A stretch of 64,000 bases of DNA from Escherichia phage UE-M3, in the sequence record PP301342.1, one strand, 5' to 3'. This document shows positions 5 through 64,000 of the stretch, in pieces. Position numbers and translations under genes: made by a program. The first letter of the stretch is position 1. Each line of letters begins with the position of its first letter. The notes under the pieces were generated by a model, which was given only the letters and a program-made list of their open reading frames with translations, had not been told where the DNA came from and searched no databases.

Positions 5-2359
5 ATGAACGAAATGTTCTCACAAGGTGGTAAAGGCTCCACTGGTATTCTTACCAACAAACAAGCCATTGCCCGTAAGTTTGGTGTTAAGCAGAATGAG
101 GTTGTTTACTTTGCTGTAGGTGTAGACTTAGGGGAATACAAGGTCATTTATGATAAGACTACCCAGCGAGCTTACTCATTACCTGCAGACCTTGGTTCAG
201 GGGTTACTGCTGTAAGCCTTAATACTGCCGGTGTGTTAGTTCACTCTACTGGTAATGTTGACCTGGGTGCACTAGCTGTTTCACGAGGAGAGTTTATAAC
301 AGTCCCTGGGTCCTTCTCTTTGGGTTATGAGATTAAAGTAAAGAATGAATGTCTTGAATACCAGGGTGGGTTGTATCGATGGGATGGCGCACTGCCAAAG
401 GTTGTAGATGCTGGGTCTGTTCCTGATATTGGTACAGGAAAGTGGCTGAGCGTCGGTGATGCAGCCCTGCGCAGCCAGATTTCAGACCCGGATGGTGCGT
501 CCAGTTACCCTGAATTGCAGATGGCAAGATGGCGTGATGAGGGTGATGTTCGAGGCTGGGGTGCTAAAGGGGATGGTGTAACAGATAGTACGGAGAATAT
601 AGCTGCTTCACTAAATTCTCAAAAAGCTGTCGTAGCATCAGACGGTGTATTCTCTAGTTCTGGTATTAATAGTAATTACTGTAACTTAGACGGTAGAGGC
701 AGTGGTGTACTAAGTCACCGTTCAAGTACAGGTAACTACTTAGTATTTAACAATCTACGCTCAGGTCGCTTAAGTAATATTACGGTAGAAAGTAATAAGG
801 CGACCGATACCACTCAAGGGCAGCAGGTATCTCTTGCTGGTGGCAGTGATGTTACTATAAGTGATGTTAATTTCTCAAACGTTAAGGGCGCTGGTTTCAG
901 TTTAATCACATACCCTAATGATGCACCCTCTGATGGGCTTATGATTAAAGGCATTCGAGGTAGCTACTCCGGCTATGCTACTAATAAGGCGGCTGGATGC
1001 ATACATGCTGATTCCTCGGTTAACTCCCTCATAAATAACGTCATTGCTAAGAACTACCCTCAGTTCGGGGCTGTAGAACTGAAAGGTACAGCCAGTTATA
1101 ACATAGTCAGCAATGTTATAGGGGCAGACTGCCAGCATGTAACTTACAACGGTACAGAAGGGTCAATAGCTCCCTCTAACAACCTTATCAATGGGGTAGT
1201 GGCTAATAATCCTAAATATGCAGCGGTTGTTGCAGGCAAAGGTAGTACCAACTTAATCTCAGATGTGCTTGTAGATTTCTCAATCTCTGACGCTAGTCAG
1301 GCTCACGGTGTTACAGTAGAAGGCTCTGATAACGTAATAAGCAATGTGCTTATGTCAGGATGTGATGGTACTAACTCTTTAGGGCAAGCTCAAACTGCTA
1401 CAATTGCGCGCTTTATAGATACAGCTAATAACAACTATGCGTCTGTATTTCCTAGCTACAGTGCTACAGGTGTTATTACTTTCGAATCAGGTTCTACCCG
1501 TAACTTCGTAGAGGTAAAGCATCCGGGAAGGAGAAACGACCTTCTCAGTGCTACTGGTACTATTGAAGGTGCAGTTACTATTGACGGCACTAGTAATAGC
1601 AACGTAGTGCACGCACCTGCCTTAGGACAGTACATAGGTAGTATGTCAGGTCGGTTCGAATGGCGGATTAAGTCCATGTCACTTCCGTCAGGCGTTCTTA
1701 CCTCGGCTGATAAATACAGAATGCTTGGGGATGGTGCTGTGTCATTAGCTGTAGGCGGGGGTACTTCTTCTCAAGTTCGCCTATTTACTTCTGATGGTAC
1801 TTCTCGGAAAGTATCACTCACCAACGGTAACGTGCGTCTTCCTACCAGTAGCACAGGTTATTTGCAGTTAGGTTCTGATGCAATGACCCCAGATAGTACT
1901 AATACATACGCATTAGGTTCCGCAAGTAGAGCATGGTCTGGCGGTTTTACTCAATCAGCATTCACTGTTGTCTCAGATGCTAGGGATAAAACAGAGCCTC
2001 TTAATATCTCAGATGCTTTACTGGATGCTTGGTCTGAAGTTGACTTTGTGCAGTTTCAGTACTTGGACAGGATTGAGGAGAAGGGTGCAGACTCAGCCAG
2101 ATGGCACTTTGGTATCATCGCTCAGCGAGCTAAGGAGGCTTTCGAACGTCACGGCATAGATGCACATCGCTATGGCTTCCTGTGCTTCGACAGTTGGGAT
2201 GATGTATATGAGGAAGATGCCAATGGCTCTCGTAAACTGATTACACCAGCAGGTTCCCGCTACGGTATTCGTTACGAGGAAGTACTGATATTAGAAGCTG
2301 CGTTGATGCGGCGTACTATTAAGCGTATGCAGGAAGCATTAGCTGTTATGTCTAAGTGA
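5..2359 (+). CDS. Tail fibre/tailspike, probably 5-prime truncated at window edge; C-terminal intramolecular chaperone (peptidase S74-like) domain from ~1973
   Basis: 784-aa ORF; repetitive beta-helix-like Gly/Asn/Ser/Thr-rich core; C-terminal SDARDK...WHFGIIAQRAKEAF motif typical of self-cleaving chaperone domains of endosialidase/L-shaped tail fibres; open frame continues to position 2. Confidence 0.7.
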   Translation: MNEMFSQGGKGSTGILTNKQAIARKFGVKQNEVVYFAVGVDLGEYKVIYDKTTQRAYSLPADLGSGVTAVSLNTAGVLVHSTGNVDLGALAVSRGEFITVPGSFSLGYEIKVKNECLEYQGGLYRWDGALPKVVDAGSVPDIGTGKWLSVGDAALRSQISDPDGASSYPELQMARWRDEGDVRGWGAKGDGVTDSTENIAASLNSQKAVVASDGVFSSSGINSNYCNLDGRGSGVLSHRSSTGNYLVFNNLRSGRLSNITVESNKATDTTQGQQVSLAGGSDVTISDVNFSNVKGAGFSLITYPNDAPSDGLMIKGIRGSYSGYATNKAAGCIHADSSVNSLINNVIAKNYPQFGAVELKGTASYNIVSNVIGADCQHVTYNGTEGSIAPSNNLINGVVANNPKYAAVVAGKGSTNLISDVLVDFSISDASQAHGVTVEGSDNVISNVLMSGCDGTNSLGQAQTATIARFIDTANNNYASVFPSYSATGVITFESGSTRNFVEVKHPGRRNDLLSATGTIEGAVTIDGTSNSNVVHAPALGQYIGSMSGRFEWRIKSMSLPSGVLTSADKYRMLGDGAVSLAVGGGTSSQVRLFTSDGTSRKVSLTNGNVRLPTSSTGYLQLGSDAMTPDSTNTYALGSASRAWSGGFTQSAFTVVSDARDKTEPLNISDALLDAWSEVDFVQFQYLDRIEEKGADSARWHFGIIAQRAKEAFERHGIDAHRYGFLCFDSWDDVYEEDANGSRKLITPAGSRYGIRYEEVLILEAALMRRTIKRMQEALAVMSK

Positions 2360-2484: not shown

Positions 2485-3111
2485 TTATATAGAGTTTACT
2501 GTTTGCATTGCCCTAATTGATACTGCTGTTAGGGTAATTACTTGTCCTGAGATATTAAACATACCTAACTGAATACCGTCTACCATGAAAGGGTCAGTTG
2601 AACCAAGTGTGTAAGTAGCCAGTACGTTATCTCTGTTAGCAATGTCTGTACCCTGTACTTTAACACTAGCATCTGAACCTACTATCGTAATTCCATTGGT
2701 TCGTCTTGTTTGTGTTCTCCATTCCCTTGCTGTACCTGCACCACCTGCAATAATTCCTGATATACGAACACTGAACATTACCTGGGTATTCCTGGTTCTA
2801 ATGGGGAACTTAAGATTTCCTTCTTCAATTGTTAGTGCTGCTGTACCTCCAGGTGATTTAGTTATCCCTGGTAATGAAAAGTAATTGAACCAGGATTGGT
2901 CATTTACTGCCTGGCTCCCGGTCCATGTATACAAGTCCAGAAGAAATGTGTCTTCTAACTCTGTTGGTGGGAAAGGTAGTAGTTCTGGGGGGATCTCTGA
3001 GATGTTATTAGCAGAAACTATTCGTTCCCCATAACTTCCCACGACCAACAATCCCCCCTTCATTTTGCACACAACATCCCTACCACTTTGGAAAATATCT
3101 TTAATAGACAT
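2485..3111 (-). CDS. Hypothetical beta-rich protein, opposite orientation to surrounding late genes (possible tail/receptor-binding accessory)
   Basis: ORF track 2485..3138 starts at GTG; ATG at 3111 has GAGGT Shine-Dalgarno 5 nt upstream; no recognisable motif. Confidence 0.5.
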   Translation of the reverse strand: MSIKDIFQSGRDVVCKMKGGLLVVGSYGERIVSANNISEIPPELLPFPPTELEDTFLLDLYTWTGSQAVNDQSWFNYFSLPGITKSPGGTAALTIEEGNLKFPIRTRNTQVMFSVRISGIIAGGAGTAREWRTQTRRTNGITIVGSDASVKVQGTDIANRDNVLATYTLGSTDPFMVDGIQLGMFNISGQVITLTAVSIRAMQTVNSI

Positions 3112-3235
3112 AGTTACCTCGCAGTTGATACCAGACACTATGTCTGGATGTATCCCATCATACTAAGTATTATCTAAGAGTCATCTTATGATACGACCCT
3201 ATTGGGGTTCTTAACTTTACAACTACGGTAATATT

Positions 3236-3565
3236 ATGAATGAATCGGGCGAACTGCTTCTAGTCAGACTGGAGGAACGATTGAAGACTCTGTTTGAGAA
3301 TCAGACGAGAGACAGACAGGACCGTGAGAAACTGGAGGAAACTCTGGGAGAATTACGGGATTCAATCAATGACATAGGCAATAGACTAAAAAATGTGGAG
3401 GATAGCTTAGCTAAGAATGAACCTACTATTGAAGAGTTCATCACCATTAAGCATAAAGTTGTTGGTGCTGGAATTTTTGGTAAGTGGGTATGGGCTGGAG
3501 CAGGTGCAATTATTGGTGTATTGGCTGCTGCAAGACGGGAGATATTCGCATGGTTCGCAGGCTAA
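3236..3565 (+). CDS. Coiled-coil protein with C-terminal transmembrane segment (lysis-associated? antiholin/regulator candidate)
   Basis: 109 aa; charged helical N-terminus, C-terminal GAGIFGKWVWAGAGAIIGVLAAA hydrophobic segment; directly upstream of holin/endolysin. Confidence 0.4.
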   Translation: MNESGELLLVRLEERLKTLFENQTRDRQDREKLEETLGELRDSINDIGNRLKNVEDSLAKNEPTIEEFITIKHKVVGAGIFGKWVWAGAGAIIGVLAAARREIFAWFAG

Positions 3566-3810: not shown

Positions 3811-4435
3811 ACAGAAACTTGCTGCAAAAGGTGGTGCAGTGGGAGGGGTTATCGCTGCTATTCTGGGGGCAGTGTTCTATATGGAAGGAGGTTATGTAAA
3901 CAATCCTCGTGACCCAGGTGGGGAAACTAATCATGGTATTACCCAATCAGTAGCTAAGACTCATAAAGAAGTTCTGGCTACTGAGTATGGTTGGGATGGT
4001 TCTATGAAGGGTTTATCTAAAGAGATGGCTGCTGAGATATACATTGATGACTATGTACTTAAACCTAACTTCGTAGCCTTCGCTGATATATCTCCTGCTG
4101 TAACGCATAAGCTAGTAGATGCTGGTGTTAATACTGGTGTAACCCGTCCTGCTAAGTGGTTGCAGATGTCTCTTAATGAAATGTCACGTAATGGCAAAGA
4201 CTACCCTAAAATACAGGTTGATGGTAAAGTCGGTACAAGTACTGTTAATGCATATAAAGCATTACAGAAAAAACGGGGCAAAGTTGCAGCATGTCAGGTA
4301 ATGATTAAGCTGCTTGATGCTAAACAACTGAACCACTATACCTCATTAAACATGCCAGACTTTACGTATGGTTGGGTAGCTAACCGAATAGGCAATGTGC
4401 CACTGGAGGCATGTAATGAAGATGCTAATCTCTAA
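3800..4435 (+). CDS. Endolysin, GH108-type N-acetylmuramidase, with Gly/Ala-rich weakly hydrophobic N-terminus (possible SAR signal)
   Basis: GGYVNNPRDPGGETNHGIT motif characteristic of GH108; AAGGAAG Shine-Dalgarno upstream of ATG 3800; size as recalled for N4 gp61 (208 aa). Confidence 0.8.
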   Translation: MKAKQKLAAKGGAVGGVIAAILGAVFYMEGGYVNNPRDPGGETNHGITQSVAKTHKEVLATEYGWDGSMKGLSKEMAAEIYIDDYVLKPNFVAFADISPAVTHKLVDAGVNTGVTRPAKWLQMSLNEMSRNGKDYPKIQVDGKVGTSTVNAYKALQKKRGKVAACQVMIKLLDAKQLNHYTSLNMPDFTYGWVANRIGNVPLEACNEDANL

Positions 4436-4922
4436 AGGTTGGCCTTATCTTCTGGTGGTGGTCCTTGGGGCCACCATTTACTTTTGGGGCAATTCCAATG
4501 GGCAGTCTACTGTTCAAAAGAAATGGGATGCCCAAAAGGTCGAAGACCAAAAGGCAACGCAAAAATTACAGGACAAATACAATGCTCTCCAAAGAAACCA
4601 TAGTTATGAAGTCGGGTTACTCACTTCCCGGTTGCAGACGGCTGAGAGTAATTACGCAAGCGAGCTTGCTCGCGTTAGCAGTGATTACGACAGCCGGATG
4701 CAACAGTCTGAAAGACGAGCATCGGTATATAAACGTCAAGCCGAAGCCGGAACCCTTGAGTGCAGAAGTCTTGCAAGCCATGCAGCCAGACTCGACAATA
4801 GTCTTGAAGAAGGCAGACGTTTGGTTGAAGAACTCCGGGCAACTGTTAGACTCCGTGACAGCCAACTAATTGAGTTGGGTAAACAGATTCAGGCTGACCG
4901 TAAACTTTTTGAACAGGAATAA
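4416..4922 (+). CDS. i-spanin (Rz-like): N-terminal TM anchor then coiled-coil periplasmic domain
   Basis: ATG 4416 with GGAGG 6 nt upstream; [19 protein letters not shown]; Q/E/R-rich helical remainder; position immediately after endolysin. Confidence 0.6.
4606..4869 (+). CDS. o-spanin (Rz1-like) lipoprotein embedded in +1 frame inside the i-spanin gene
   Basis: Frame +1 ORF wholly inside 4416..4922; signal-like [32 protein letters not shown] with lipobox-like TAGC then Pro-rich mature part; alternative start 4582. Confidence 0.5.
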   Translation: MKSGYSLPGCRRLRVITQASLLALAVITTAGCNSLKDEHRYINVKPKPEPLSAEVLQAMQPDSTIVLKKADVWLKNSGQLLDSVTAN

Positions 4923-8809: not shown

Positions 8810-10012
8810 ATGTTAAACTATAACGCTCCAATTGACGGTCAGAAATCTAGCATTGATGGTGCTGGTTCCGATCAGATGAATACCTTTTACTGGCTGAAGA
8901 AAGCTATTATTCAGTCTCGTAAAGACCAGTACTTCATGCCACTGGCTAACACCATTAACATGCCTAAGAACTATGGTAAGACTGTTAAGGTGTATGAGTA
9001 CGTTCCACTGCTCGACGATAAGAACATTAACGACCAGGGCATTGATGCTAATGGTGCTACCATCGTTAATGGTAACCTGTATGGTTCTTCTAAAGACGTA
9101 GGTAACATCACTTCCAAACTGCCTCTGCTGACAGAGAATGGTGGTCGTGTTAACCGTGTAGGCTTTACCCGTCTGTCTCGTGAAGGCTCCATCCATAAGT
9201 TCGGTTTCTTCTACGAATTTACCCAAGAGTCCCTGGACTTTGATTCTGATGATCAACTGAAAGAACACCTGTCTCGCGAACTGATGAACGGTGCTGTACA
9301 GTTGACTGAAGCTGTTCTCCAGAAAGACCTGCTTGCTGCTGCTGGTACTGTATTGTATGCAGGTGCTGCTACTTCTGATGCTACCATCACCGGTGAAGGT
9401 TCTACTCCGTCTGTAGTTTCTTATAAGAACCTGATGCGTCTTGACCAGATTCTTACTGAGAACCGTACCCCGACTCAGACTACTATTATCACTGGTTCTA
9501 AACTGACTGATACCAAAGTACTTGGTGGTACTCGTGTAATGTACGTTGGTTCTGAATTGGTTCCAGAACTGAAAGCGATGAAAGATCTGTTCGGTAACAA
9601 AGCATTCATCGAAATTCAGCACTATGCTGATGCCGGTACTCTGATGAATGGTGAAGTTGGTTGTATCGACAAGTTCCGTATTATCCAGGTTCCTGAGATG
9701 CTGCATTGGGCAGGTGCTGGTGCTCAGGCTACTTCTAACCCAGGCTATCGTTCTACTATGGTTGGTGGTCAGGAACACTACGACGTATTCCCGATGCTGG
9801 TAGTTGGTGATGACTCCTTCTCTACCATTGGCTTCCAGACTGATGGTAAGTCTGTTAAGTTCTCCATCATGACTAAGATGCCTGGTAAAGAAACTGCTGA
9901 CCGTAATGACCCGTATGGTGAAACTGGCTTCAGTTCTATCAAGTGGTACTACGGTATCCTGGTTAAACGCCCAGAACGTCTGGCTATGATTAAGACTGTT
10001 GCTCCTCTGTAA
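8810..10012 (+). CDS. Major capsid protein
   Basis: 400 aa (N4 gp56 recalled as ~401 aa); strong codon bias (long antisense ORF artefact 8813..10030); followed by stable hairpin. Confidence 0.8.
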
Positions 10013-16731: not shown

Positions 16732-16753
16732 AAAAGCCCTTCGGGGCTTTTTT
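16732..16753 (+). terminator. Rho-independent terminator
   Basis: aagccc-ttcg-gggctt stem-loop followed by ttttttc. Confidence 0.6.
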
Positions 16754-16818
16754 CTTACACTGGCTTACTGTAGAGTAAGCTTTCCATATACGATATAAGT
16801 TTGAACAGGAAACATGCT

Positions 16819-55030: not shown

Positions 55031-55864
55031 TTATTCTACAACAGTAATAGCGATGGTTACATCGACCTTACCGTTGGTAACTACTACAGAAGTAGCTTCA
55101 CCAGCAGCCACTGGTTTAACCGTCAATACGTTACCGGCAATGGTAGCCGTAGCACGGGCAGAATCTGGGGTAGTCTTAATAGACAAAGTACCAGCAGATG
55201 AACCAACAGGCATAGCAGCAATGGTTACAGTCTTACCGGCAGCAGTATCATCAGCAACAGACAGAGCCAGTGAATCAGGAGTAGCTACCAGTGAGCTTGC
55301 TTCATAGTAGCCTACTGCCAGCAACGACGTATCTTCTACAGTGGTTCCATTGGCATCAGTAACAATCACTTTATAAGTACCAGCAGAAGCAGCGGTTACG
55401 TCATTAAGGGTTAATGTTGCAGTAGCAGCAGATGGGTTAGTACTAGAGCTAATATCAGTGAATGCTGCACCAGCAGTATCAGCTTTGAACTGCCATTTAT
55501 AAGTAAATGGTGCTTTACCGCCTGCTACATCAACATGCCAGTTAATATCTTCGCCTTCGATAGCAGAGATTACACGAGGCAGTTTAGTAGCAACAGTCAG
55601 TCGTGGAGTAGCTTTCATGTCAATAGAGATGGCTTGCATATCCACGATGTTGTTAGGCCAGAAGCCTGCTTCAGCAGGGTTTTTAGCAGAACGTTTATAC
55701 AGCAGATCACGTACACCGTGAAAGATAACTAAACTATCCGGGTAAGTGGCATCCGGATGCACAAAAGTACCTACCTCTACGGAACCACCCGGGATAGAAC
55801 CCCCTGCATCCAGTACAGTTGCAACATTGGTGGTTTTGTTAAAACCTACTTTTAAAGTTGGCAT
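55031..55864 (-). CDS. Ig-like domain protein, probable capsid decoration protein (N4 gp17-like by position)
   Basis: Track ORF to 55993; ATG 55864 preceded by GAGGA; Thr/Ala/Val-rich beta-strand repeats incl. FTYKWQFK...AGTYKVIVTD Ig-like. Confidence 0.55.
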   Translation of the reverse strand: MPTLKVGFNKTTNVATVLDAGGSIPGGSVEVGTFVHPDATYPDSLVIFHGVRDLLYKRSAKNPAEAGFWPNNIVDMQAISIDMKATPRLTVATKLPRVISAIEGEDINWHVDVAGGKAPFTYKWQFKADTAGAAFTDISSSTNPSAATATLTLNDVTAASAGTYKVIVTDANGTTVEDTSLLAVGYYEASSLVATPDSLALSVADDTAAGKTVTIAAMPVGSSAGTLSIKTTPDSARATATIAGNVLTVKPVAAGEATSVVVTNGKVDVTIAITVVE

Positions 55865-58790: not shown

Positions 58791-58816
58791 TAATAACCAA
58801 AAGCTGCGGAGCAGCT
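58791..58816 (-). promoter_or_regulatory. Hairpin promoter of N4 virion-RNAP type (P3-like), driving the RNAP II operon
   Basis: agctgc-GGA-gcagct 6-bp stem / 3-nt GGA loop preceded by aaccaaa; 34 nt upstream of gene start 58768. Confidence 0.6.
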
Positions 58817-61992: not shown

Positions 61993-62102
61993 TACAATTC
62001 TTACAACCATTTGATAGCCATTGAGTTGTACAACACCATAGTGTCGTTACAATTCTTACAACCATTTGATAGCCATTGAGTTGTACAACACCATAGTGTC
62101 GT
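61993..62102. repeat. Perfect 55-bp tandem direct repeat (2 copies), each containing palindrome gttgtacaac
   Basis: 61993-62047 identical to 62048-62102 (tacaattcttacaaccatttgatagccattgagttgtacaacaccatagtgtcgt). Confidence 0.85.
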
Positions 62103-62169
62103 TTCTGTACACCAGTGTGATATCTACGAAAGATACATTCTTCAATGGCATCCTCAATGTTAGTGAATA

Positions 62170-62388
62170 TCACTGGTTCCTCTTTGCAAACTCTTCTGCT
62201 TCTTTAGCCCAGAGTTGCTTACGTACCTCTTTAGCTATGATGGAAGCAAACAGACACTTAACGAATACAACTGGTAACTTACAAATAAGTACCAGCTTAG
62301 TTCTTACCCACTTGGCTCCATTGAGAATGTAACCACGTAGGCGATACAGCACATAACAGAGTATTACAAACGCAATGAAGTCCAACAT
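62170..62388 (-). CDS. Small membrane protein
   Basis: 72 aa; hydrophobic N-terminus LDFIAFVILCYVLY. Confidence 0.35.
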   Translation of the reverse strand: MLDFIAFVILCYVLYRLRGYILNGAKWVRTKLVLICKLPVVFVKCLFASIIAKEVRKQLWAKEAEEFAKRNQ

Positions 62389-62392
62389 AGTC

Positions 62393-62578
62393 TTACACCT
62401 TATGAAGTTTACGGATTTGTTTACGAGTAGGTTTAGCTACAAAGAAGTGGTCATAATGCTGACCATTCTTATCTTCTACAGATACCTGCCAACGAGCATT
62501 AAGAGACATCTTACTACCCCAAGGTTGTAACATAACAATCAACTTTTGTGAGTTATAACGGTTACATACTGTACGCAT
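62393..62578 (-). CDS. Small hypothetical protein
   Basis: 61-aa ORF. Confidence 0.35.
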   Translation of the reverse strand: MRTVCNRYNSQKLIVMLQPWGSKMSLNARWQVSVEDKNGQHYDHFFVAKPTRKQIRKLHKV

Positions 62579-62680
62579 AATGGTTACTCCTTCATCTAAT
62601 ATAAATCTATATCTATCTGGTTACTGTTTCAGTACCCTTCGTCTAAAGATACTCAAAAAGTAGAAATAGATTATCGTCTA

Positions 62681-62712
62681 GTTAAAAATAAAAGACTCCC
62701 CGAAGGGAGTCT
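62681..62712 (-). terminator. Rho-independent terminator (minus strand)
   Basis: agactccc-cgaa-gggagtct stem with gttaaaaataaa on + side. Confidence 0.6.
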
Positions 62713-62721
62713 AGTGGTTGA

Positions 62722-63105
62722 TTAGAAAGTCAGTTTACGAGCATATTTATTCTCGTCTGCTGGGATGTCAGCAGCCTCTGCTTTCACACGACGAAGTTGA
62801 ACTTGCAGGTTAATGATACCTTCTTCACCAGGTTCCAGGTTCTGAGCATATTCAATTAACTGTTCCAACAGGTCGTTCTGTGCACAACGCATAGCACGGA
62901 AGTCAGCATTGCTGCTATTAGTAGGCAGCGGCTCCTGAGTATCCAAAGGAATACCAGTAGGCAATGAGATGAATTTCTCATCATCAGAGCCTTCATTAGC
63001 TACATAACCAATGTTCAGCCAGAACTGAGCTTTAGGCTTATCAGTTTTAGCAGTAGAAGTAGCAGCAGCGTTAGATTGACCGAAAGTGAATTTTTGAATA
63101 GACAT
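62722..63105 (-). CDS. Early protein, first gene downstream of P2-like hairpin promoter
   Basis: Track start 63204 lacks Shine-Dalgarno; ATG 63105 has GGAGAG 6 nt upstream; 127 aa, acidic C-terminal half. Confidence 0.5.
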
Positions 63106-63210
63106 TTTGTACTCTCCAGATAAATGATTGTTTGATTTATGGGTTTGTCCGTCGGTGACTAAACCCAAGAAAAGACTTAAGATTTCAATGATTAGTGGAT
63201 GCATTTAAAT

Positions 63211-63234
63211 CATCCATAAGACGCGGAGCGTCTT
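63211..63234 (-). promoter_or_regulatory. Hairpin promoter of N4 virion-RNAP type (P2-like)
   Basis: catccat-aagacgc-GGA-gcgtctt: 7-bp stem, GGA loop, conserved CCATAA flank; closely resembles recalled N4 early promoter CATCCAAAAGAAGCGGAGCTTCTT. Confidence 0.65.
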
Positions 63235-63238
63235 GGTT

Positions 63239-63442
63239 TTAACTGTTATTAGGTCGGTGCTGTTTGATAGCTTTAAGCAAGGCTATCATGTCATCAATTT
63301 CTTTCTCGTTAAGTTTCCATAATATGGAATCCCCATCAGGGTAACCTTTAGCGGAACCATGATTCACGAGAACTACCCCGTCTACAATTGCTCCAAATAG
63401 TTTTCCTCTTTGGATAGCAATCTTCTCTATGTTAAATGCCAT
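63239..63442 (-). CDS. Small early hypothetical protein
   Basis: 67-aa ORF ending 5 nt before the P2-like hairpin. Confidence 0.45.
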   Translation of the reverse strand: MAFNIEKIAIQRGKLFGAIVDGVVLVNHGSAKGYPDGDSILWKLNEKEIDDMIALLKAIKQHRPNNS

Positions 63443-63498
63443 AAATAGGATTCTCTTAAAGTAGAATAACTATCTACTTTTGACTATCTATCTAATGT

Positions 63499-63527
63499 TC
63501 AAAACAGGAGACTCCGAAGAGCCTCCT
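63499..63527 (-). terminator. Imperfect hairpin terminator (minus strand)
   Basis: ggagactc-cgaa-gagcctcc with short A-run on + side. Confidence 0.4.
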
Positions 63528-63534
63528 AGGTGAC

Positions 63535-63858
63535 TTAGTTTTTAGTCAGGATGTCAATTACTTTTGAATATTCTGCGTTATAGATACGAGCGTTTTCTTT
63601 ATCCTTGCAGAATTCTTCAATACTTTTCTTACGCAGAGTCTCAGTCATAGCTGTCTCCTCTGCCAGTTTATTAACAAAGGTATGCATTTCTAATTTAGTA
63701 CGGATGGCTTGTTTCTCTGCCATAGTACTTACATATGAATTAAGCATACCTACTGCTTTAGTTGCTGTACCGAATGTATCTGCAACAGTAGTAGCAGCTG
63801 AGTTAACAGTACCAAGTAAAGTTCCTGCGGTCATACGTACAGTAGCTTGAGTAGTCAT
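63535..63858 (-). CDS. Early protein, first gene downstream of P1-like hairpin promoter
   Basis: 107 aa; ATG 63858 with GGAG 8 nt upstream; 43 nt from hairpin. Confidence 0.5.
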   Translation of the reverse strand: MTTQATVRMTAGTLLGTVNSAATTVADTFGTATKAVGMLNSYVSTMAEKQAIRTKLEMHTFVNKLAEETAMTETLRKKSIEEFCKDKENARIYNAEYSKVIDILTKN

Positions 63859-63890
63859 GATGATAGCTCCAATAGTTGATGATAGGACGA

Positions 63891-63915
63891 CATGTCCATA
63901 ACATGCGGAGCATGT
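63891..63915 (-). promoter_or_regulatory. Hairpin promoter of N4 virion-RNAP type (P1-like)
   Basis: catgtccata-acatgc-GGA-gcatgt: 6-bp stem, GGA loop, CCATAA flank. Confidence 0.6.
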
Positions 63916-64000
63916 GTAACGTGTAAGGTGGGGTAGGGTAGTGGCTACACCGTCAACATACCGGGGGGGCTAGTTGAGTGTAAGGGTGTAGCCCCAGCCA

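Follow-up and report, generated by a model that had tools for sequence, protein, structure and literature searches.

A reversed gene in the late region of Escherichia phage UE-M3 may encode a capsid-anchored, knob-tipped virion protein

Introduction

What is made by a gene that points the opposite way to all of its neighbours in the late region of a phage, and where does its product act? The question is raised by a 64,000-nucleotide stretch of DNA from Escherichia phage UE-M3 (sequence record PP301342.1), analysed here at its full length and called the window. In it, a gene for a 208-residue protein lies on the minus strand (2485–3111) among plus-strand late genes, with a perfect inverted repeat beside its start. 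A sequence-only reading of this locus had suggested a separately regulated tail accessory or receptor-binding protein, or else a moron-like acquisition. We find that the protein joins an N-terminal module homologous to the capsid decoration protein gp45 of Shigella phage B2 to a C-terminal domain predicted to fold as a TNF/C1q-like knob. The combination of domains is new, but of kinds already known among the decoration and fibre proteins of phages. We propose, tentatively, that the protein is a dispensable auxiliary adhesin displayed as a trimer on the capsid.

Over its first 8 kb the window matches Escherichia phage UE-S5a (PP175015.1) at 100% identity, window position 1 corresponding to record position 9877. 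That record is classified in the Schitoviridae (Enquatrovirinae, Gamaleyavirus) and has an N4-like layout: late genes occupy the plus strand, beginning with the terminase genes and ending with the virion RNA polymerase gene, and replication, middle and early genes follow on the minus strand. In PP175015.1 the gene in question, UES5a013, is the one exception to the plus-strand orientation in the stretch bounded by the terminase genes and the virion RNA polymerase gene, so it is indeed alone. Phage N4 has no reversed gene and no counterpart at the corresponding place, where gp63, gp64, gp65 and gp66 all lie on one strand.

Results

The reversed gene encodes a conserved protein

The open reading frame called by program spans 2485–3138 on the minus strand and begins with GTG (217 residues). 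We place the true start at the ATG at 3111, because a GAGG Shine-Dalgarno motif (3117–3120, minus strand) lies 5 nt upstream of it and because homologues begin there. The coding sequence (2485–3111, stop codon at 2485–2487) then specifies 208 residues, the length originally proposed. The same start is common to all 21 aligned homologues, whose proteins open with MS(I/L)KD. The GAGG motif, read from the sequence, is kept in phages Bp4 and pSb-1 and in two metagenomic Gamaleyavirus-like relatives, L010 and L011. The gene is real and under strong purifying selection: against these four homologues the ratio of nonsynonymous to synonymous divergence (dN/dS) is 0.07–0.15, with dS as high as 1.2–1.7 against L010 and L011, to which the protein is 83% and 76% identical, respectively. 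Its GC content (0.40–0.43) equals that of its neighbours, with no compositional anomaly.

The UE-S5a record describes UES5a013 as ‘hypothetical protein, gene 9’; it is the ‘G-9 protein’ of a published study of the UE phages (PMC11927229) and belongs to PHROG 17779, a family of unknown function. A Pfam scan of the 208-residue protein returned no family. Some Salmonella homologues carry the label ‘protease’, which is unsupported by any search in this analysis.

The N-terminus is homologous to a capsid decoration protein

The attachment site of the protein is suggested by its first 45 residues (2977–3111, minus strand), a small alpha/beta unit homologous to residues 1–48 of B2 gp45. This 99-residue homotrimeric capsid decoration protein was modelled in the cryo-electron microscopy (cryo-EM) map of the B2 capsid (PDB 9d82; Subramanian et al. 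2024, PMC11654681). Searched against the PDB, a profile built from Schitoviridae members matched residues 1–48 of 9d82_J (‘B2 Dec Gp45’) at E=1.2e-8, the only match at E≤1, and a broader family profile found the same chain at E=0.05. Pairwise BLASTP of gp45 against the window protein gave 41% identity at E=5e-8. The relationship also recurs inside B2: gp46, encoded directly downstream of gp45, is the homologue of the window protein (52% identity) and is 49% identical to gp45 over the first 45 residues (E=1e-14). In agreement, gp45 residues 1–46 match phrog_17779. The window protein thus has the conserved N-terminal module of about 45 residues that marks gp45-type decoration proteins, with the consensus MxY..I..IL.DGKD...K..GG..VVG..GE.ILAAKD..ELP, in which G20, G28, A34, E39 and P41 are invariant.

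Beyond this module the two proteins differ. In gp45 it is residues 55–99 alone that match the phi29 head fibre, at its C-terminal end (PF11133 positions 233–277), whereas the window protein continues into a proline-rich linker and a TNF-like knob of 150 residues. Neither the window protein nor B2 gp46 matches PF11133, and the Ala/Thr-rich helical segment of gp45-type proteins is absent from the window protein, whose C-terminus is a jelly roll in the structure model. Because it is gp45 residues 55–99 that match the distal end of the phi29 fibre, the shared module is the non-distal part of gp45 and likely its base. We infer that the module is the capsid-proximal base in both proteins and that the window protein is a gp45-type decoration protein tipped with a knob. 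Both come from Schitoviridae, and their genes are adjacent in B2-type phages; capsid binding has been shown for gp45 only.

The module is rare. A word-indexed search with the N-terminal profile recovered five short fragments only, and we used an exhaustive search instead. Among 1.84 billion representative proteins, this search found the module in just 10 clusters, with two full-length architectures, one of about 100 residues (gp45-like) and one of about 205 residues (knob type). A separate gp45 gene was not found in UE-S5a. The major capsid protein of the window phage, encoded at 8810–10012, shares 58% identity with its B2 counterpart.

The C-terminal domain is a predicted TNF/C1q-like knob

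An AlphaFold2 monomer model of the 208-residue protein, built on 51 sequences, has a mean predicted local distance difference test score (pLDDT) of 88. Residues 1–33 form a small alpha/beta unit and residues 56–205 (2497–2946, minus strand) a beta sandwich with pLDDT 90–98. Between them lies a low-confidence, proline-rich linker (residues 46–55, LPFPPTELED..., 2947–2976, minus strand); the least confident part of the model falls at residues 41–50, with pLDDT 61. The model agrees with the earlier description of the protein as beta-rich, and the predicted sandwich has the ten-strand jelly-roll topology of the TNF/C1q-like superfamily. No membrane segment or enzymatic motif was seen in the domain scans and the structure model.

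The closest structural matches to the knob are the tail-needle knobs of Sf6 and HS1 (the C-terminal domain of the gene 9 protein; PDB 3rwn, 4k6b), also a TNF-like jelly roll at the C-terminus. Other matches are the PRD1 vertex spike P5 (PDB 1yq5, 1yq8), BclA, C1q and TNF proteins, and TNF-like lectins; cyanophage tail-fibre domains match as well. Sequence identity to the Sf6 and HS1 knobs in the structural alignments is only 15–19%. P5 sits on the penton at the five-fold vertices of a member of the Tectiviridae, a lineage unrelated to this phage, and has no sequence similarity to the window protein. The proteins with collagen stalks and TNF-like knobs (BclA, ExsFA/BxpB and C1q) and the TNF-like lectins (the N-terminal domain of BC2L-C, and PLTL) are of bacterial or animal origin and were compared by fold only. 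All structural relatives of the knob are trimers at the distal tip of a fibre, a spike or a collagen stalk.

Homologues of the knob alone, 45–55% identical, are found in prophages as well as in phages infecting Salmonella, Aeromonas, Klebsiella and Providencia. The distant ones bear many different N-termini, several with collagen-like repeats in the position of the linker (PF01391 in homologues P0053, P0067, P0068 and P0074); other N-termini (KISEMP...VQGG) are presumably similar to N-terminal motifs of tail fibres. Because the N-termini are so varied, and several of them collagen-like, the knob appears to be a portable distal domain of trimeric fibres. By analogy with the structural relatives it would form a homotrimer, as the collagen repeats of the homologues also imply.

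Capsid or tail

The fold of the knob raises the possibility that the protein acts at the tail. This is how the locus was read from its sequence; the GenBank annotation of UE-S5b likewise points to a tail-associated receptor-binding or ‘tail needle knob’ protein, and PMC11927229 treats it as a receptor-binding protein. The fibre- or spike-tip fold implied by that reading is found in the model, with the tail-needle knob as best structural match and cyanophage tail-fibre domains also on the list, and the presumably tail-fibre-like N-termini of some distant homologues point the same way. The N-terminus suggests otherwise. In Sf6 the knob sits at the end of a long coiled-coil needle of the gp26 type, which plugs the tail, whereas the window protein has a 33-residue alpha/beta unit and a linker; it lacks a coiled-coil needle like that of P22 gp26, and its N-terminus is the module of the B2 decoration protein. 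Homology to gene 9 or gp26 proteins was not detected at the sequence level, the PDB profile searches giving 9d82_J only, and a Pfam scan gave no match to PF18668, the adaptor domain of tailspikes. Since the anchor matches the N-terminus of gp45 and no tail adaptor, the protein more likely sits on the capsid than on the tail.

The knob itself is also unlike a typical receptor-binding tip. Among phages whose hosts are E. coli, Salmonella and Aeromonas it retains 45–55% identity, a conservation across host genera that is unusually high for a receptor binder that determines host range.

We examined Schitoviridae loci from Gamaleyaviruses (Bp4, L010, L011), the Triduovirus TR2, Ithacaviruses (SP-058, B2, L012) and a fourth type (L014). 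In B2, FSL SP-058, TR2 and a metagenomic relative, the gp46 homologue directly follows a gp45-type gene in one operon. In addition, the epsilon15-like phage PAT1 and Aeromonas phage Gekk3-15 carry knob homologues in their head modules, flanked by the portal gene on one side and the protease and capsid genes on the other. The comparison of relatives suggested earlier as a check places homologues beside tailspike and tail-fibre genes, as expected of a tail protein, and at head-module loci too.

Several observations weigh against a capsid-displayed knob. At all Schitoviridae loci examined, the gene adjoins a Tail_spike_N tailspike gene and is convergent with it, a synteny invariable in the four lineages, and a homologue in the Chaseviridae follows four tail-fibre genes and precedes the lysis genes; both arrangements fit a role at the tail. 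The mass spectrometry (MS) table for the B2 virion contains gp45 without gp46, and no extra density was reported (PMC11654681). According to that study, the quasi-sixfold capsid sites taken by B2 gp45 are also those of the Hoc-like protein in Moo19, a phage of the Enquatrovirinae (PMC11654681). The window also encodes a Hoc-like head decoration protein (55031–55864, minus strand; phrog_2973, E=3e-99), which may occupy gp45-type capsid sites or compete for them. Finally, published proteomics of UE particles offers weak evidence for a virion role. The G-9 protein was among the ‘particle-associated proteins’ found by liquid chromatography–tandem MS in four of four UE phages, but 44–56 proteins per phage, of about 89, passed in that study, including lysis and replication proteins (PMC11927229).

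A tail location could draw further on the weak unidentified density reported at the tail tip of B2. That density is seen in both B2 and Moo19, and Moo19 probably lacks the gene; no Moo19 record was among the tblastn matches, although whether Moo19 is included in that collection was not checked. Repeated deletion of the gene without replacement, described below, likewise argues against a receptor binder at the tail. Of the earlier tail proposal, then, the fibre-tip fold and the reported association with particles stand, and the anchor points to the capsid. We regard a tail-associated receptor-binding or needle-knob protein as unlikely.

The Hoc-like protein offers a precedent for part of our reading. 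It is a non-essential protein of the capsid surface (N4 gp17, Moo19 gp28) whose gene stands apart from the late operons, in the company of middle genes on the early/middle strand. Because its gene lies on the minus strand at 55031–55864, decoration genes in these phages are evidently encoded outside late operons. It differs in having an Ig-like fold and an unrelated sequence, and it may use the same capsid site as B2 gp45 (PMC11654681). Its product was detected in particles of UE-S5a and UE-M6 only (PMC11927229).

Virion protein or intracellular protein

The product might not belong to the particle at all. A moron-like gene expressed by the host RNA polymerase could serve superinfection exclusion, lysis timing or a secreted lectin function, in which case its detection in particles would reflect contamination. 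Consistent with this, the gene is an autonomous unit with a sigma-70-like promoter, a terminator and a polarity opposite to the late genes; it is dispensable; its homologue gp46 is missing from the B2 virion MS table; and the specificity of the UE proteomics is low. In Ithaca- and Triduoviruses, moreover, the homologue shares an operon with the holin, endolysin and spanin genes. In these Salmonella and Shigella genera the operon reads holin, holin, lysozyme, spanin, gp44, gp45, gp46, gp47 and runs opposite to the structural genes. Because gp45 sits in that operon, a proven capsid protein is co-transcribed with the lysis genes there, and operon membership says little about function. The window protein, as noted, has neither membrane segment nor enzymatic motif, and its order of anchor, tether and trimeric knob is the architecture of displayed virion appendages. 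Its composition is not foreign, and the gene is ancestral in the lineage instead of newly inserted. We consider a non-structural role improbable, more so than a role at the tail. That the protein is a virion appendage of some kind is likely, while the more specific reading as a capsid-anchored trimeric knob serving as a dispensable adhesin falls a little short of an even chance.

The gene is ancestral and has been lost repeatedly

Nine Gamaleyavirus genomes in the phage collection carry the intact gene. In six others (ECBP1, EC1-UPM, ZQ2, PD205, PE007 and PW8), both ends are retained and an internal deletion spans the stretch from near the start codon to around codon 175. In St11Ph5, U1G, PGN829.1, PBM-2/3 and HK2, the match to the window starts only at 3132–3138 and runs rightwards; a short 3′ remnant of the gene persists in St11Ph5 and U1G, the two of that group that were aligned. 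Every gene-less Gamaleyavirus aligned (ECBP1, EC1-UPM, St11Ph5 and U1G) thus bears a deletion scar. Because the gene-less relatives carry remnants, the gene is ancestral in the lineage and has been lost at least three times, not recently gained. The genomes indicate that it is dispensable, through at least three different internal deletions in Gamaleyaviruses. Changes in EC1-UPM that had looked ‘compensatory’ were dropped from consideration, since ECBP1 shows that the EC1-UPM variant is most simply a secondary deletion of about 20 bp in the remnant.

This history, together with the neighbour-like GC content, speaks against the moron-like acquisition that had been suggested. The gene resembles a moron in having its own promoter and terminator (as consensus matches), in lying between genes of a conserved operon and in being missing at that place in N4. 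It differs in that its composition is not foreign and in that it is present through retention, not gain.

The 3′ end of the gene also occurs outside the family. Myoviruses of the Ackermannviridae (A221, PC3, PH4, RPN242, SKML-39 and fGh-Ecl02) contain an unannotated fragment corresponding to its last ~82 codons, with about 90% nucleotide identity to pSb-1. In Escherichia phage A221 (locus L008, 4975–5253) the fragment adjoins a tailspike gene whose product is 81–85% identical to Gamaleyavirus tailspikes over its N-terminal 187 residues. This suggests that the fragment is the footprint of a tailspike-cassette exchange between a podovirus and a myovirus family.

In L010 (4636–4845) and L011 (912–1121), the gene is succeeded on its own strand by an open reading frame of 69 residues (phrog_16160, of unknown function). 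The window has no such frame, and Ithaca- and Triduoviruses have a 106-residue DUF7740 protein in that position.

The gene has its own predicted promoter and a shared terminator

A GC-rich stem-loop with a 9-bp stem (2439–2460) lies between the convergent tailspike and 208-residue genes and is a candidate terminator for both. On the plus strand it is followed by GTTTTTATCT, a T-run, and on the minus strand by UUUUAUAC (z = −3.4). The bidirectional function ascribed to it in the sequence-only reading is plausible, with a weaker effect on the minus strand.

Upstream of the gene, a sigma-70-like promoter is predicted at 3157–3184 (minus strand), with ATGACT (3184–3179) as −35 element, a 16-nt spacer and TATGAT (3162–3157) as −10 element. 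It agrees with the consensus at 9 of 12 positions and is the only minus-strand sigma-70-like match; as a consensus match, it predicts a transcript start near 3150. The promoter lies in a near-invariant non-coding block (3141–3184), GTCTGGATGTA...CATCATACTAAGTATTATCT...GTCAT, recognised in alignments that include gene-less relatives. The block, about 45 nt long, is almost unchanged in L010 and L011, where synonymous sites are saturated. Separate regulation, as first proposed, is supported by this conserved promoter-like block and the terminator, both consensus matches. Because relatives that lack the gene retain the block, the late promoter of the gp63–lysis–portal operon probably lies in it too, and we suggest that the block probably contains overlapping divergent promoters whose two −10 regions are a few bp apart. 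Both the block and its 9–10-mers are unique in the window, and a repeated phage-specific promoter of the middle RNAPII type was rejected on this ground.

The inverted repeat lies in the predicted leader

The inverted repeat, CCAGACA-CTA-TGTCTGG, is perfect and lies exactly where it had been noted (3131–3147). As minus-strand RNA it forms a stem-loop of 7 bp with a 3-nt loop and a folding energy of −9.0 kcal/mol. It ends 20 nt before the ATG at 3111 and lies between the −10 element and the Shine-Dalgarno motif. Because the sole sigma-70-like match is at 3184–3157, the repeat would occupy about +4 to +20 of the minus-strand leader; its position is thus in the leader and not, as had been thought, in the promoter region or an upstream operator.

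Stem-loops just before the Shine-Dalgarno motif and near the transcript start, such as that of the ompA leader, are typical stabilisers of mRNA 5′ ends. The 5′ stem-loop is part of the predicted minimum-energy structure of the leader in four of five lineages. Its stem varies from 7 bp in Bp4 and pSb-1 to a 6-bp core in L010 and a register-shifted form in L011 (ATCCAG-ACCTA-CTGGAT), with energies of −7.4 to −9.0 kcal/mol, so that L010 and L011 retain the stem-loop with different partner sequences. The arm inside the block is invariant and the opposite arm varies. The 13 loci from IMG/VR are too few for covariation statistics on the hairpin.

The repeat may instead have no action on the minus-strand mRNA, being part of the region upstream in the plus-strand late promoter of the gp63–lysis–portal operon or a functionless, recombination-prone palindrome at the edge of the block. 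Its plus-strand arm GTCTGGATGTA is invariant in all Gamaleyaviruses, gene-less ones included. Homology to the window resumes inside the repeat (3132–3138) in St11Ph5, U1G, PGN829.1, PBM-2/3 and HK2, and the hairpin is kept in the gene-less St11Ph5 and ECBP1, which speaks against a leader function, since in these phages it could be part of the late promoter region of the plus strand, or be functionless. On the other hand, the hairpin is lost in U1G although the late operon is kept. The window has 9 perfect hairpins of this size (7-bp stem, 3-nt loop) against 4.75 ± 2.0 in Markov-1 simulations, an enrichment of only about twofold, and about 0.009 would be expected in the 124-nt spacer, a figure for a post hoc observation. 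Our best reading is a stem-loop at the mRNA 5′ end that stabilises the message or tunes its expression; a part of the plus-strand promoter, or no function, is about equally likely.

Two other roles for the repeat were rejected. A translational switch was suggested by the minimum-energy fold of the window leader (−19.5 kcal/mol, z = −2.7), in which the 5′ arm and loop of the hairpin pair with the start codon and the Shine-Dalgarno motif is buried. This fold is not conserved, Bp4, pSb-1, L010 and L011 keeping the local hairpin, and it is probably incidental. An early promoter of the N4 virion RNA polymerase was suggested by geometry, since the repeat has the required 5–7-bp stem and 3-nt loop. 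N4 early promoters have a GC-rich heptamer centred at −11, with −11G, −10G, −9C and −8G on the template strand (PMC4496689), whereas the cores of the repeat read ACA-CTA-TGT and ACA-TAG-TGT. The repeat also lies in the late region, in the gap between tailspike and lysis genes, and not at the first-injected end, upstream of early genes.

Elsewhere in the window, three plus-strand hairpins of the GC-GGA-GC type fit the N4 early-promoter consensus by sequence, with a GC-rich heptamer and the GGA loop on the template strand, and have minus-strand early genes downstream: 63218–63234 (AAGACGC-GGA-GCGTCTT), 63901–63915 (ACATGC-GGA-GCATGT) and 58802–58816 (AGCTGC-GGA-GCAGCT). They are candidates only. 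A second small hairpin near the reversed gene (3195–3209, GACCC-TATTG-GGGTT) lies in the leader of the gp63–lysis operon. Its pairing is kept through two-sided changes in divergent loci (GACTC...GAGTT in L010, different again in L011), and it may be a conserved structure in the 5′ untranslated region of the late mRNA.

Neighbouring genes and other features of the window

The left neighbour of the reversed gene is the tailspike gene (5–2359, plus strand), whose 784-residue product has Tail_spike_N and Peptidase_S74 domains. To the right follow, in order, the genes for a gp63-like protein of 109 residues, a holin, a GH108 endolysin, Rz and the portal protein. These domain assignments agree with the original placement between a tail-fibre gene, here a tailspike gene, and the lysis cassette.

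The gp63-like protein (3236–3565; PHROG 5211, function unknown) heads the lysis cassette. By eye, its N-terminal part looks like a coiled coil and its C-terminal stretch is hydrophobic (VVGAGIFGKWVWAGAGAIIGVLAAA). Across records it is labelled ‘tail needle protein gp26’ or ‘tail length tape-measure protein’; these tail labels look unfounded. Within the Rz-like spanin gene (4395–4922), an open reading frame in another frame (4465–4869) encodes a peptide with a lipobox-like motif, LAVITTAGC, and resembles an embedded Rz1 o-spanin; a single spanin is annotated in the UE-S5a record. Just upstream of the virion RNA polymerase gene are two neighbouring hairpins, a terminator-like one at 16732–16751 (AAAAGCCC-TTCG-GGGCTTTT) and one with a 7-bp stem and 4-nt loop at 16763–16780 (GCTTACT-GTAG-AGTAAGC). 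Finally, identity between the window and PP175015.1 extends to about 62048, beyond which the window is offset by about 346 nt, its last 55 nt corresponding to record positions 347–401. This suggests that the end of the window (~62048–64000) comes from a version of the genome that is permuted differently or collapsed at its termini.

Discussion

We suggest that the protein is built as a miniature fibre, with an anchor of about 45 residues, a short proline-rich tether and a TNF/C1q-like knob. Three chains would trimerise through the knob, and the three anchors would dock on the N4-type T=9 capsid, so that knobs displayed on the head could act as a lectin-like auxiliary adhesin. Because such a knob would help in some conditions and not be needed for infection, its gene could be deleted repeatedly. 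Transcription would start at the gene’s own sigma-70-like promoter on the ‘early/middle’ strand, the strand that also carries the Hoc-like gene, and so be independent of the late operons. It would end at the terminator shared with the convergent tailspike gene, and the stem-loop at 3131–3147 would most plausibly protect the 5′ end of the mRNA or tune expression.

More speculatively, and with appreciably less likelihood, the Schitoviridae may possess a plug-in head-fibre system in which one capsid-docking peptide of about 45 residues carries interchangeable distal domains, a phi29-like fibre end in gp45 and a TNF-like lectin knob in the window protein. Many knobs on the head would then provide a second, capsid-borne adhesin for a conserved glycan. 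The −10 element of the host-type promoter of the reversed gene would overlap, and might compete with, an N4SSB-dependent late promoter on the opposite strand, and the 3′ end of the gene would serve as a homology arm for exchange of the tailspike cassette between N4-like podoviruses and myoviruses of the Ackermannviridae.

Phage UE-S5a and its relatives are under development for therapy against uropathogenic E. coli, and the 208-residue protein has so far been counted among their four ‘receptor-binding proteins’ by fold match alone. If it is a knob displayed on the capsid, it would be irrelevant to primary host range; it may still have a bearing on how particles are retained on surfaces or mucus and on their immunogenicity, and may be of use as a natural scaffold for display in which a short anchor could carry any trimeric domain. 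The 3′ remnant of the gene would be a marker for tracing tailspike-cassette exchange between phage families. Basic concepts are unchanged and annotation is refined: an orphan family, PHROG 17779, at times mis-annotated as ‘protease’, is now linked to a decoration protein of solved structure.

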